64,000 bases of DNA from an uncultured archaeon (GCA_964486045.1 CAZALK010000004.1:32001-96000), one strand, 5' to 3'; shown: positions 642 through 35,398, counted from the stretch's first letter. Numbers and translations are program-made. Notes: generated by a model from the sequence alone, not told the origin.

Positions 642-661
642 CGTGAAATAACCGTTTCACG
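642..661. repeat. Complete dyad site CGTGAAA-TAACCG-TTTCACG (putative tyrosine-recombinase site, array head)
   Basis: Perfect 7-bp inverted arms around a 6-bp asymmetric spacer; extends to 11-6-11 with 9/11 arm match. Confidence 0.8.
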
Positions 662-865
662 AAATTAAAAATTGTAGTGAACGAGTTAGTACCGCGAGTA
701 ATATTTTCCTATTATAAATCACAAGAAAAGAATATTTGTCATTTTTAGAATCTCTTCGCTAAAGCCAGAAATAAGAACAATATTATTTATTTTTAGAAAA
801 ATAATCTTAATTATAAGAGATTTTAATTTAAAATAGAAATTTAAATAATAAATAGGTAAAAATCC

Positions 866-1819
866 ATGAAAAGAATAAATTCCACTAAAATTATTAGTAT
901 AATCAATTGGAAAGGTGGAGTGGGTAAGACTACTTGTGCAGTTAACATTGCTGCAGAATGGGCAGATATGAATAAAAAAATATTATTAATAGATATTGAT
1001 GCACAAGCATCTGCTTCAGCTTATCTCTACACGGAAGAGAAATATAAAGTGGAATATTTTAATCCAATTTTAGAAGCTTTAAGAACGAGAAAAGAAGAAA
1101 ATGTGGCTAAAGATATAGCAATCAAGAAATCAATTTATGGTGTATTTTGGGATGCAATCAAGGATACAAATCTTTTTTCAAAAAACAGTGGGATAAAAAA
1201 AAGCTTAGGAGATTTAAGAACCCTAGATCTAATTCCATCAACATTTTATTTAAATGAACTTGAGCAAGAAATTTCTTCTGCTTCGAGTACTCAAGGATTA
1301 TCTCCCTTCAATATTCTTAGACTAGGTTTAAACAAACATGAAATTTTAGAAAATTATGATTATGTTTTAATAGACTGTCCACCAAACCTTAACTTGATTA
1401 CTTTAAATGCTATTTTCGCATCAGATTACTATCTTATTCCAACAATCCCAGATCAATTGTCAACATTAGGGTTACCTTTGTTAATAAGAAGATTGCAAAC
1501 CGTGAAAAAGCGGAGATTGGAATTAGATGGAAATGACCCAAAACTTTTAGGAATTATACTTACAAAAGTTTCTCATCAATTAAGGGGCATACAAACATCA
1601 TGGATTGAGGTACAAATTCCTTGGATGTTAGAGCGTTTTATTGAAGATAAATTAGTTTGGAATAAATCTAAAATATATGAAAATTACATTAAAGAAGCGG
1701 TAGATATTCAAAAAGCTATGGAAGAGTCTAGACCATTATGCACATCAAAAGAAAAATCTAAAGAAATTAGAATAAGATATCAAAATTTAGCGAAAGAAAT
1801 AATCCAAACCATCTCTTAA
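866..1819 (+). CDS. parA: ParA/MinD-family ATPase
   Basis: Deviant Walker A KGGVGKTT, LIDIDAQ, LIDCPP motifs. Confidence 0.9.
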   Translation: MKRINSTKIISIINWKGGVGKTTCAVNIAAEWADMNKKILLIDIDAQASASAYLYTEEKYKVEYFNPILEALRTRKEENVAKDIAIKKSIYGVFWDAIKDTNLFSKNSGIKKSLGDLRTLDLIPSTFYLNELEQEISSASSTQGLSPFNILRLGLNKHEILENYDYVLIDCPPNLNLITLNAIFASDYYLIPTIPDQLSTLGLPLLIRRLQTVKKRRLELDGNDPKLLGIILTKVSHQLRGIQTSWIEVQIPWMLERFIEDKLVWNKSKIYENYIKEAVDIQKAMEESRPLCTSKEKSKEIRIRYQNLAKEIIQTIS

Positions 1820-1846
1820 TTAAGTATAACCTAATGTGGCTTAAAA

Positions 1847-2437
1847 ATGCGTGAACAAGAAGTATCAATCAATATCCTTAATGGTCTCCTAGATTTCTCT
1901 AAAAAATATCCAAATTCTATCGATTGGAAGAAATTTGAAAAAGAATCGATTAAGATGGAATCTAAATTTAAAAATTTAATAATTCCTTCAAATAATGTTA
2001 AAAATATATTTTCTAATCGAAGTTATTTTAAAAATTTGAACGAAATCAAGGGATTTATGAGTAAAAATTTCAAACATAACATTAAAGAACGAACTACAGT
2101 AGGGGTTTTATCTTATATTACATACATTACTATAAAAAACCCCAGTTTGATATTAAAAATCGAAAATATCATTAAAGCTAAGTCAAAAATTATTATTCCA
2201 AAAAAAAAGCCTCAACCAAGGATTAGTCAACCAAATAAATCATGGAAGGAATGGACTAAATATGAATCAGAAGAATTACATAAACATCTGGATAAGTTAA
2301 CACTTACTCAAATTAAACCCAAGTTGGGGAAATTACTATCTTCTAGTGAAAAAAAACTTAGAAAAGCAGAACTTATTGATGTTATAGTTAAAAAAATTAC
2401 AAAATTGAAAATTCATTATGAAATGGGACCCGGATGA
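1847..2437 (+). CDS. Basic hypothetical protein with possible C-terminal HeH/Rho-N-like DNA-binding module
   Basis: Operonic with parA; C-terminus LTLTQIK...KLRKAELIDVIVKKI. Confidence 0.55.
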   Translation: MREQEVSINILNGLLDFSKKYPNSIDWKKFEKESIKMESKFKNLIIPSNNVKNIFSNRSYFKNLNEIKGFMSKNFKHNIKERTTVGVLSYITYITIKNPSLILKIENIIKAKSKIIIPKKKPQPRISQPNKSWKEWTKYESEELHKHLDKLTLTQIKPKLGKLLSSSEKKLRKAELIDVIVKKITKLKIHYEMGPG

Positions 2438-2934
2438 TACGACGCAAGAAAGTTATGTTCGAGGAGGATCTTCACGAAATATTTTATAGGTTTCCTTATT
2501 TAATTGTAAATAAAACAGCTTCTATTATTAATACAATTCATGAATACAGGCTTGATTCTGCTTCTATCCCAGATATCTACATTGAAACTCTTTTTAAAAA
2601 ATATTATTGTGAAGTAAAACTGGGAAATTTAAAAGAAATTGATCTATATCAAGCAATACGGTATTCAAATACGATTAAAACCCAAATTGATAACCATGAA
2701 ATTCAAGAGGATTCTAAAAAATCTATAATTATTCTTATTGGAATAAATATCTCAAGTAATTTAGAGGATATGGCAAAAAAAAAGGACATTTCAGTGAAAA
2801 TAATTGGCAGGAACATTCCTGAATCTATAACTATATGCAAAAATTGTAGAAAGGCATATGATTCTAAAGTATTTTGTTGTAGCTTTTGTAATTCAAATGA
2901 AATTCTCGAAGTCATAACTTTGAAATATAAGTAA
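2434..2934 (+). CDS. PD-(D/E)XK (NucS/Mrr-like) nuclease with C-terminal Zn ribbon
   Basis: PDI...EVK...QAIRY motif; CKNC...CSFC; ATGA overlap with the upstream gene. Confidence 0.6.
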   Translation: MIRRKKVMFEEDLHEIFYRFPYLIVNKTASIINTIHEYRLDSASIPDIYIETLFKKYYCEVKLGNLKEIDLYQAIRYSNTIKTQIDNHEIQEDSKKSIIILIGINISSNLEDMAKKKDISVKIIGRNIPESITICKNCRKAYDSKVFCCSFCNSNEILEVITLKYK

Positions 2935-3072
2935 TTTTCTTTGCAATTGTAATGTGCTTTATCATTATATGTTGTAGGTGATAATCTCTCTTAACAAAGA
3001 GCAACAACTTAAATAATAATCGATATTTATACTTTTAAGTTAATAATTTTTATAAGGGTAAGGCGATATTAA

Positions 3073-33564: not shown

Positions 33565-33853
33565 AAATGACCTCATTAAGAATATTTTGCTTTAATTCTT
33601 CTTTTAGGCTAGGTTTTGAAACAATGGCCACTTTTGCATTAAAAATTTCTTCTAAGTAACGAGAAAGAGCTATAAAATGAATTAAATCAGCTTCTTTATC
33701 GAATTCTACTAAAAAATCAATATCACTGGCAGCAGTTTGATTATTGCTTACATATGAGCCAAAAAGCCCAATTAATTCTACCATATAATCACTTTTGAGC
33801 TTTTTCTTTATTTTTTTAAGTTTCTCCAGAATCTCTTCTTTAGTTTTTACCAT
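33557..33853 (-). CDS. mntA: Minimal nucleotidyltransferase antitoxin
   Basis: GLFGSY...SDIDFLV; upstream of hepT. Confidence 0.85.
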   Translation of the reverse strand: MVKTKEEILEKLKKIKKKLKSDYMVELIGLFGSYVSNNQTAASDIDFLVEFDKEADLIHFIALSRYLEEIFNAKVAIVSKPSLKEELKQNILNEVIYA

Positions 33854-33970
33854 TGTATTAATTTTTTTATGTTAAAATGTAATTAAGAGTACTTATATTT
33901 CTAATAAATTCTTACTCTTTAAAGAATTACTATCAATTTTAACTAATAAATAACTATTTAATTTTTATTT

Positions 33971-33983
33971 CGATTATTTCACG
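33971..33983 (+). repeat. Array site CGATTA-TTTCACG
   Basis: 12/13 match, intergenic. Confidence 0.7.
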
Positions 33984-34086
33984 TAATTCTACTAATATTG
34001 AATTAAACTTAATAGCTGAAAGAATCCATATTATTATGGAACAATAAAAGAAATCAATTTTTAATCCAGATGAATGTAATAACAAA

Positions 34087-35193
34087 ATGACTTCTACAGA
34101 TTTATTCAATTGGTTGTTGGAGAATGGTGGACCAGTCATCCGTTATAAAACCGCTACTGAATTTGCAACAGATCAAGTGAAAATCGATGTTGAGAAACTT
34201 CGAAGTGATCTGCTCAAATCGGAAATCGTTCAAAAATGGCTTCAGTTAAACCCCGTATCAAAGTTACCAGGCATCTATGCTCTACATCATAGTAGATCAT
34301 CCATATATGAAAATCTGATGAATAAGCTTATTCAATTAGGGTTAAACTCAACCTTCAAGGCTTACGATAAGTTCGCTCAAGAAAGCTTGGAAATCCTTCG
34401 AACTTTAATGAGCCCACACAATATCTTCTTTAAACAGTTTTTAATATCTCTAATACTCTCGTTTTTATGTAGATCTGGATATGAGAATGAAGAGCTGGTA
34501 AAACAAGCTTTAGATCGCAGATTTGATGCTTTAAAAGATTTCGTTCAGCTGAAAAAACTTGATTTTTACGTGGATCCTGCTGAATTTCCACGATTGCCGA
34601 AAATTAGACGTCATGATATCGTGAATCCTGAGCTTTATAGCGACGGGAAACTCCGATTTCCGTTTATTCACGATATTTGGGCGTTCTCAGGAATCCTAAA
34701 ATCCGAATTACACCAAGATAAAAAAGATTTAATCGAGAAGGTCATCAAACGGATATTAAGTGATGATTATCAGAAGTTAAAAGAGGGATATGGAATAGTA
34801 GTAGAATCTCCAACGAAGGCTTATGGTATGGGGTGGTCAGTTCATCTGCCTTTTTTCCAAGATCCTAACCAACTAGATTTTTCTACAGCTTCATTAAAAG
34901 TAATGAGAAAATCAAATCCTTCCTATTTTTTACAACGACTTTATCTAATGTCTCAATTTCCTTCTGCACGAAAAAATGATTGGTTTATTACATGCTTTAA
35001 AAAATTAGAATCTTATAAAACAGATAAGGGGACTTATTTATTACCCAAATCTTGTTTAATAGAGAGACCTAACGGTTATTGGGTTCTTGGAGCTTATATG
35101 GGGTTAGGAGAAAACAGACGGGTAAAGAAGTGGGCAGAAATAGAATCAACTTTTTGGATGGCGAAAATTAAAAGGGAAATTAGGGAATTTTAA
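34087..35193 (+). CDS. Conserved hypothetical protein (possible alpha/alpha-barrel)
   Basis: WLLENGGPVIRY N-terminus; long ORF. Confidence 0.6.
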   Translation: MTSTDLFNWLLENGGPVIRYKTATEFATDQVKIDVEKLRSDLLKSEIVQKWLQLNPVSKLPGIYALHHSRSSIYENLMNKLIQLGLNSTFKAYDKFAQESLEILRTLMSPHNIFFKQFLISLILSFLCRSGYENEELVKQALDRRFDALKDFVQLKKLDFYVDPAEFPRLPKIRRHDIVNPELYSDGKLRFPFIHDIWAFSGILKSELHQDKKDLIEKVIKRILSDDYQKLKEGYGIVVESPTKAYGMGWSVHLPFFQDPNQLDFSTASLKVMRKSNPSYFLQRLYLMSQFPSARKNDWFITCFKKLESYKTDKGTYLLPKSCLIERPNGYWVLGAYMGLGENRRVKKWAEIESTFWMAKIKREIREF

Positions 35194-35248
35194 ACTAAGT
35201 ACAACACATGATTGAAGAAGGACAAAATTTGAAAAAGATTTGATATCT

Positions 35249-35398
35249 CGGTTATTTCACGATTAACTCATTTGAACTCATTTTTATTAAATGATAACAC
35301 TAAATAATCTTTAGATTTGAATATATCACAATCCAAAGTTATCCAACTAAGAGGAGAGAATACCTTTTCAAAGCTTTTAATTTGATAACCGTTTTGCG
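35249..35398 (+). repeat. CGGTTA-TTTCACG (35249-35261), linker, TAACCG-TTTTGCG (35386-35398)
   Basis: Exact and degenerate copies 137 bp apart. Confidence 0.8.

Follow-up and report, generated by a model that had tools for sequence, protein, structure and literature searches.

A single palindromic site at the centre of a two-armed array of defence and toxin-antitoxin genes in a Lokiarchaeial genome: probable crossover sites of a cassette system

A 64,000-nt stretch of DNA from an uncultured archaeon of a Lokiarchaeial family (GCA_964486045.1, CAZALK010000004.1:32001-96000, corresponding to G000:C4:32001-96000; hereafter the window) contains an array of antiviral defence and toxin-antitoxin (TA) genes parted by copies of a 15-nt word, and these copies are arranged around one complete palindromic site, designated D. 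The words probably act as crossover sites of a site-specific recombination by which defence and TA cassettes are stored and exchanged around D. Assembly G000 comprises 5.18 Mb in 45 contigs with a guanine-cytosine (GC) content of 31%. Positions are those of the window unless they are preceded by a contig number.

D is a dyad with the consensus TTCGTGAAA-TAACCG-TTTCACGAA (layout 9-6-9), and its core with 7-bp arms lies at 642-661. The repeated words were analyzed as two 13-mers, F (TAACCG-TTTCACG) and R (CGGTTA-TTTCACG), the latter being the same arm with the spacer reverse-complemented. Exact F copies were found at 649 (within the dyad), 4310, 11650, 14580, 18038, and 24202, and exact R copies at 6770, 10080, 14367, 17899, 28504, 33141, and 35249, which recovered all exact positions of the initial annotation as well as the order that it gave for 4310-18050 (F-R-F-R-F-R-F-R-F). 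By chance, 0.03 copies would be expected per 64 kb, and none of 100 shuffles gave counts as high as those observed. The near matches that had been listed were retained with one mismatch at 7922, 31766, and 33971 and with two mismatches at 10048, 22380, 28642, and 35386, but not at 24142, where three mismatches lie inside the chance range. A scan of the whole 5.18-Mb genome yielded 9 exact F and 11 exact R copies, and none outside positions 20874-67249 of contig C4 (46 kb). The sites are limited to one island (20 of 20 exact copies on C4), and the GC content of this island is 26-28%, compared with approximately 33% for the remainder of the contig.

D is the sole complete TAACCG site in the genome, and none of the genomes searched contains two exact TAACCG dyads. 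Six further exact copies are located to the left of the window (C4 20874, 23591, 25349, 26472, 28839, and 30698), all on the minus strand, and to the right of D every copy is on the plus strand; D is therefore a mirror centre and not the head of a one-sided array. The initial annotation had described an array polar relative to a single full site and had seen no left-arm-only copies. The polarity stands, but the array is bidirectional, and six such minus-strand copies exist just beyond the left end of the window (C4 20874-30710). Four further species of the genus show this mirror layout (G097:C41, G002:C28, G018:C57, and G143:C84), in which equivalent dyads sit at the polarity switch. In the five dyad-bearing arrays (G000, G097, G002, G018, and G143), all 18 copies to the left of D are on the minus strand and all 37 copies to the right are on the plus strand. 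Unlike the strand of the sites, the direction of the genes is mixed on both sides. Derivation of the layout from a single ancestral inversion is unlikely, because it is common to five species with different cassettes. A replication-linked polarity was also rejected, since the GC skew along C4 was uninformative and the motif is confined to 46 kb.

The extent of the site was derived from the information content of 120 copies (at most one mismatch) in 15 species. The conserved unit is 15 nt long and consists of TAACCG or CGGTTA followed by TTTCACGAA; only the spacer and one arm are informative, and the flank opposite the arm carries approximately 0 bits. Across 21 array loci, F accounts for 61 copies and R for 59, with both types present on both sides of the dyad. 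Of 131 genomes sampled from this Lokiarchaeial family, 40 contain the exact F word, across seven genera, and it was found in none of 19 genomes taken from other families of the order; the reversed word, used as a control, gave approximately nine matches altogether. Raised counts of a degenerate pattern in the neighbouring family f4 were considered as possible arrays and rejected, as the matches were scattered and formed no arrays.

To place the cassette boundaries, Logan contigs from four other marine-sediment metagenomes were aligned on window positions 1-20000, where uncovered parts carry no evidential weight. These contigs contain single cassettes with 91-99% identity joined to unrelated DNA, and they diverge from the window at 10079, 11650, 11663, 14383, 14580, and 17911, each 0-4 nt from the edge of a site. 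In metagenome X7, a contig starts at 10079, a contig diverges after 11663, and the match of a 5.5-kb contig ends at 17911; in X4, a contig breaks at 11650 and divergence occurs after 14383 and before 14580; in X2, a contig diverges after 14383. An all-against-all BLAST comparison of the 21 array loci showed that 17% of the ends of homology blocks fall within 5 nt of a site, compared with 2% for random positions, an eightfold excess. The breakpoints proposed by the initial annotation are thus seen both in other metagenomes and between species. A cassette of 1285 bp common to G097 and G001 (90% identity) has both ends within 2 nt of sites in both genomes, and a 704-bp block common to G132 and the window (32454-33155, 90% identity) ends at the R site at 33141. 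Common cassettes are 85-94% identical, compared with approximately 70-73% for ordinary genes compared in this genus, which indicates that species exchange them. In the G002 assembly, two contigs are wholly unlike upstream of the TAACCG of an F site but identical over the 77 nt that begin with this site (77 of 77), which represents either an alternative junction or a duplicated cassette. Joints within sequencing reads were rejected as proof of excision or inversion, since all sides are shorter than 30 nt and reflect the similarity of one site to another.

Many contigs of related genomes start within approximately 130 nt of a site (G002:C28:65, G005:C132:72, G075:C269:40, and G096:C236:80, and further G114:C44:16, G063:C281:133, and G004:C19:71). 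The sites are shorter than the usual assembly words, and such contig ends hint at alternative junctions within populations.

The array also follows internal rules. In 80 pairs of homologues, the orientation of the gene relative to the arm agrees in 65, including all pairs with at least 60% amino-acid identity, and the cassette at 10127-11608 has a paralogue to the left of D (C4:28913-30396) in mirror orientation. Three genes opposing the arm direction take their TGA stop codon from the D-proximal arm (10088, 18046, and C4:25351-25353); in the R site at 10080-10092, for example, the TGA of the arm ends the minus-strand gene 10088-11566. The arm is therefore part of the cassette body, which places the exchange point on the spacer side. 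Of 94 inter-site intervals, 67 run from F to R or from R to F. Genes are present in 31 of the 32 F-to-R intervals (15 along the arm direction, 11 opposite, and 5 mixed), whereas 23 of the 35 R-to-F intervals are gene-free, and 22 of these 23 measure 122-128 bp. The usual unit is thus F, genes, R, approximately 125 bp, F.

The R-125 bp-F units (hereafter R-125-F) belong to several unrelated sequence families with only the ends and the length in common; one linker family, which includes the unit at 17899-18050, is conserved in more than 15 species with an identity of 73-81%, compared with approximately 70% for the ordinary genes of these species. Each unit ends on both sides in a 6-bp core, and the two cores are inverted repeats. 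When 28 units were folded as DNA, the z-scores were mostly between -1 and +1, around -0.5, and in a consensus fold of 13 members of the conserved linker family only the 6-bp core pairs (-1.2 kcal/mol). An attC-like hairpin was rejected on both grounds, in agreement with the initial annotation, which had inferred integron logic without such hairpins. A role of the sites as promoters or terminators was rejected as well, because they lie at varying distances from start codons (83-205 nt), occur at both gene ends, and have a uniform strand where that of the genes is mixed. The 152-bp gene-free unit at 17899-18050 contains conserved blocks, including a AATAAATAG stretch approximately 45 nt before its F site, and might hold a promoter or encode a small RNA.

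Comparison of the sequences makes it probable that the sites are recombination joints of mobile cassettes. A reaction centred on D can be outlined in which D provides two inverted 9-bp putative binding arms around the asymmetric 6-bp spacer, a half-site provides the spacer and one arm, and F and R represent the two complementary halves of D. A tyrosine-type recombinase would bind the arms in trans, and the partners would be D and a half-site, with three of the four arms present. If the two spacers have the same orientation, a circle would be excised or integrated, D would be regenerated, and a half-site would be left; if they have opposite orientations, the result would be an inversion by which D moves to the position of the half-site and the intervening cassettes are carried to the other side with their outward order unchanged. 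A dyad walking in this manner would preserve a single D per array, the outward direction of all arms, and the presence of both F and R to either side of D, and all three invariants match the observed features. That the reactions are centred on D and include such dyad-moving inversions is possible, if not quite probable. The simpler model of the initial annotation has a circle with X-TAACCG-arm integrate into the full site and would place only F to the right and only R to the left; it is at odds with the presence of both types on both sides and leaves the usual F-genes-R-125 bp-F unit unexplained.

No tyrosine recombinase is encoded on contig C4, and the five PF00589 hits of genome G000 all lie elsewhere. 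One of them is a XerA equivalog (C18:67232-68158, minus strand; NF040815, 247 bits), which scored 101 bits with the integron-integrase model TIGR02249 (cut-off 265). In G002, an array-bearing genome with 100% completeness, the XerA-like gene is the sole PF00589 hit. A search of five array genomes detected no serine recombinase, and no Y1 HUH transposase was found in G000. The initial annotation had expected a recombinase acting from elsewhere, and XerA, encoded on another contig, fits this expectation; no other candidate occurs in all of the array genomes checked, and XerA can be named as the enzyme only tentatively.

The arms are not private to the island. Perfect CGTGAAA-N6-TTTCACG dyads, D and other spacers included, number 11 on 10 contigs of G000 (C1:397464, C2:296668, C5:254597, C7:89001, C9:189559, C10:38457, C13:58254, C20:71493, C23:20516, and window 22314-22333 in addition to D). 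The arms are invariably 6 bp apart, and neither a different spacing nor an everted arrangement of them was found in this genome. Genomes of genera g1, g12, and g14 have 3-14 perfect dyads each, with almost no matches to the reversed control. Spacers such as GATGCG, GAACAG, and TCATCG recur once per genome across species, which indicates conserved loci. The lone dyads are flanked by housekeeping genes that are unrelated to one another and often form convergent pairs, so a regulon is unlikely. Only the TAACCG dyad bears a large array, and no half-sites were found with the spacer ACTACG of the dyad at 22314-22333. At C9:189559-191208, a GAGGTG dyad is followed 1.6 kb to the right by an exact GAGGTG-TTTCACG on the plus strand, and the enclosed segment encodes a 75-amino-acid membrane protein and a 260-amino-acid protein of no known family. 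This locus is a one-cassette array that obeys the same rule as the TAACCG array. The other same-arm dyads may represent dif-like sites, serve for docking, or be bound by a chromosomal protein.

Several observations weigh against recombination around D by an enzyme such as XerA. The support is wholly comparative and includes no direct observation of a recombination event. None of the arrays checked has a linked recombinase. The arms are unlike the published euryarchaeal dif sequence (PMC11840125) and lack the TAA-N6-8-TTA of archaeal dif, which makes the action of XerA a guess; a search of G000 for a canonical euryarchaeal-type dif (ATATAA-N6-TTATAT) gave eight weak matches, none of them convincing. 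Perfect dyads with the same arms occupy approximately 10 conserved chromosomal loci per genome without an array, so that the arm-binding protein would have some other, possibly primary, role. One array contig of G097 (L007) has no dyad, which may reflect an assembly break or the existence of arrays without D. In addition, the near-strict alternation of F and R and the fixed length of the R-125-F unit are not predicted by the walking-dyad scheme. This unit may be a gene-free cassette or an accessory site borne by the cassette, in the manner of the attP arms or of the accessory sequences found at cer and psi.

It is unlikely that the half-sites are passive scars, that is, inert relics of the attL/attR type left by one-way accretion of integrative elements at a dif- or attB-like site, where each element brought or borrowed its integrase and one old inversion, or a few, produced the layout. 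The accretion of elements in tandem at a single site is familiar from integrative mobile elements exploiting Xer (IMEX) and from transfer RNA (tRNA) islands, and both the lack of an integrase on contig C4 and the decayed sites at 22380, 28642, 35386, and 10048 agree with this explanation. However, 20 copies are exact over 13 nt in an island of 27% GC and approximately 120 copies with at most one mismatch persist in 15 species, an exactness that needs ongoing selection or renewal. Moreover, the same mirror layout surrounds one dyad in five species with different cassettes, single cassettes rather than whole elements have been swapped between populations, and the cassettes of the window contain no integrase remnants. 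Binding of a dimeric protein without recombination, to operators, centromere-like sites of the adjacent ParA operon, or roadblock sites, with the half-sites as weak copies of regulatory or architectural function, would accord with the 11 perfect 6-bp-spaced dyads of G000, with the 3-14 dyads per genome at conserved loci in the family, and with the ParA-family gene 205 bp from D; the arm heptamer, moreover, is identical to the bacterial parS half-site, arranged the opposite way. Binding of a dimer does not explain why the spacer and only one arm are conserved, why the TAACCG copies are limited to one island, why the strand switches at D whatever the gene direction, or why the sites coincide with cassette breakpoints; the housekeeping neighbours form no regulon and ParA does not consistently adjoin D, which together render this explanation quite improbable.

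Cassettes might also be exchanged by homologous recombination through the 150-bp R-125-F units and the 15-nt words, with no dedicated recombinase. The linker family that is 73-81% identical in more than 15 species and flanks many cassettes is what such a process would use, but the linkers form several unrelated families, many cassettes have no linker, the breakpoints lie within words of 13-15 nt, which are too short for it, and the polarity around D is left unexplained; we consider it very improbable. Hardly conceivable is an origin of the sites as ends or targets of a transposon or of an element resembling a miniature inverted-repeat transposable element (MITE): apart from the inverted-repeat 6-bp cores at the ends of the R-125-F units, the array shows no target-site duplications and no transposase, the genome has no Y1 HUH transposase, and the copies are confined to one island instead of being dispersed. 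Site-specific recombination at the 15-nt words thus remains the preferred explanation. A more far-reaching proposal, advanced tentatively, is a new archaeal cassette platform that would comprise one palindromic host site, XerA or another arm-binding recombinase, two outward stacks of defence genes, inversions that move D, and family-wide circulation of cassettes with the same spacer, with the approximately 10 other dyads per genome as docking sites that each have their own spacer address.

The array comprises approximately 25 cassette blocks with antiviral defence and TA genes, and the cargo is largely of the kind described in the initial annotation, with Septu, an OLD-family nuclease, restriction-modification genes, and a HepT/MNT pair (Table 1). 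Further cargo includes a PDC-S11-like protein, restriction-modification genes of the MjaI and MvaI/BcnI types, an SbcCD-like pair, and a CARF-like winged helix-turn-helix protein; family assignment is missing for approximately half of the open reading frames. The segment 866-2934 is a conserved three-gene operon encoding a ParA-family ATPase, a basic protein of 196 amino acids with no known family, and a NucS_C-like nuclease, and has a counterpart with 71% identity on G132:C43. The first block is 97-99% identical in metagenomes X2 and X3, where it is present at high depth. The operon is a candidate defence or partition module. It was rejected as core machinery of the array because it does not consistently adjoin D across species: ParA is 20 kb from D in G132 and has the opposite orientation and 37% identity in G018. 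In five species, the dyads have no conserved gene as a neighbour. The window gave no match in Rfam and tRNA scans, which indicates that the array is not anchored at an RNA gene.

Table 1. Sites, units and cassette cargo mapped in the window
Feature	Position	Strand	Remarks
Full site D (dyad)	640-663	.	9-bp inverted arms around 6-bp asymmetric spacer TAACCG
First block right of D	866-3705	+	ParA-family ATPase, 196-amino-acid protein, NucS_C-like nuclease, 210-amino-acid protein
ParA-family ATPase	866-1819	+	First block; starts 205 bp from D
NucS_C-like PD-(D/E)XK nuclease	2434-2934	+	First block; lead only
Short composite	4275-4322	+	Lone arm TTTCACGAA, 34 bp, exact F; homologous to 14545-14592 and to C4:28832-28884 (minus strand)
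OLD-family ATPase-TOPRIM nuclease (Old/GajA/AriA-like)	4447-6702	+	Cassette cargo
R site, exact	6770-6782	+	
F site, one mismatch	7922-7934	+	
Septu PtuA (482 bits) and PtuB (224 bits)	8017-10042	+	Cassette cargo
R site, exact	10080-10092	+	Degenerate copy at 10048-10060
F site, exact	11650-11662	+	
R site, exact	14367-14379	+	
F site, exact	14580-14592	+	
Composite unit R-125 bp-F, gene-free	17899-18050	+	Member of conserved linker family
Second perfect dyad, spacer ACTACG, same arms	22314-22333	.	Inside array
F site, exact	24202-24214	+	
Composite unit R-125 bp-F	28504-28654	+	F end with two mismatches
R site, one mismatch	31766-31778	+	Right flank homologous to start of the 17899 unit
R site, exact	33141-33153	+	90% identical block common with G132 ends here
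HepT/MNT toxin-antitoxin pair	33281-33853	-	Cassette cargo
R site, one mismatch	33971-33983	+	
Last composite unit R-125 bp-F	35249-35398	+	F end with two mismatches
PIN-domain cassette	35507-35977		Next after last composite unit

Two further observations concern the assembly. A 2.6-kb segment of the window (45584-48225) has a GC content of approximately 39% and matches one locus each in G005 and G097 with 89-90% identity, which greatly exceeds the norm of the genus; it has no Rfam match and may be a recently transferred or highly conserved element. Contigs C40 (5.8 kb) and C45 (2.4 kb) of G000 have a GC content of 58-59% in an assembly of 31%; they probably represent contamination, although foreign or rRNA-like DNA is possible.

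Integrons are the model for the banking and reshuffling of defence and resistance genes in bacteria, and to our knowledge no integron equivalent with its own logic has come from Archaea, where few mobile elements are known from the Asgard lineage. Neither the motif nor such arrays in Asgard archaea were found in the literature searched, apart from one unrelated chance match in an abalone microRNA paper, and papers on Asgard mobile elements and a review of archaeal tyrosine recombinases contain no description of the motif. Short and exactly definable, the site allows cassette boundaries to be predicted in at least seven genera of a single Lokiarchaeial family, and offers a testable substrate (the 24-bp full site and 15-nt half-sites) together with a candidate enzyme, XerA. 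If the array is indeed run by a housekeeping enzyme of chromosome resolution, it would be an archaeal parallel to the bacterial elements that exploit Xer, and the placement of two arms around a central dyad would be a novel organisation for an array of this kind.

Among known systems, integrons, including chromosomal defence arrays and clusters of attC sites lacking integron integrases (CALINs), are similar in that small defence and TA cassettes are parted by a conserved recombination element, which here too is a cassette element of approximately 150 bp with inverted core motifs at both ends and a variable middle, and in that cassettes are common to several species. In contrast to integrons, no IntI adjoins this array, the element forms no hairpin, and the array extends in both directions from a palindrome, with genes in either orientation, rather than downstream of attI and the promoter Pc. 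Canonical integrons have been reported in Archaea (PMC9668308), but their sites are unrelated to those described here. Shufflons of the R64 type offer a parallel in the site itself: their tyrosine recombinase, Rci, acts at sfx sites in which the spacer and one arm are conserved and the other arm varies (PMC11852207), and many such asymmetric sites part short segments. A shufflon, however, inverts the whole site between neighbours, undergoes inversions only, produces alternative protein ends, and is adjoined by rci, whereas here all arms on a given side have the same direction, the flip is restricted to the spacer, a single site is fully symmetric, and whole genes are exchanged between genomes.

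The arrangement also recalls bacterial systems that use XerC/XerD. The pdif modules of Acinetobacter plasmids carry resistance genes between complete 28-bp sites in alternating orientation. As in the present array, alternating Xer-type-like sites bound the modules, and there is no dedicated recombinase, so that host Xer is presumed; moreover, since the arms are identical here, a flip of the site would equal a flip of the spacer, i.e. the alternation of F and R. The pdif modules differ in their location on plasmids, in having both arms at the module ends, and in the lack of a central full site and of mirror polarity. The IMEX at dif, such as the CTX phage and TLC arrays of Vibrio and the gonococcal island, regenerate a full site on integration and leave a site with a degenerate arm. 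They likewise form tandem arrays in which an element-borne integrase is absent, but the array described here consists of approximately 25 single-gene cassettes in two arms of opposite polarity with two spacer orientations, around a D that is at most a candidate dif. In summary, the array resembles an integron, an array of pdif modules, or a stack of IMEX in the way it works, yet has no IntI, no attC hairpin, no full sites at module ends, and no adjacent invertase, and most likely represents a new form of archaeal site-specific cassette array centred on a dyad.

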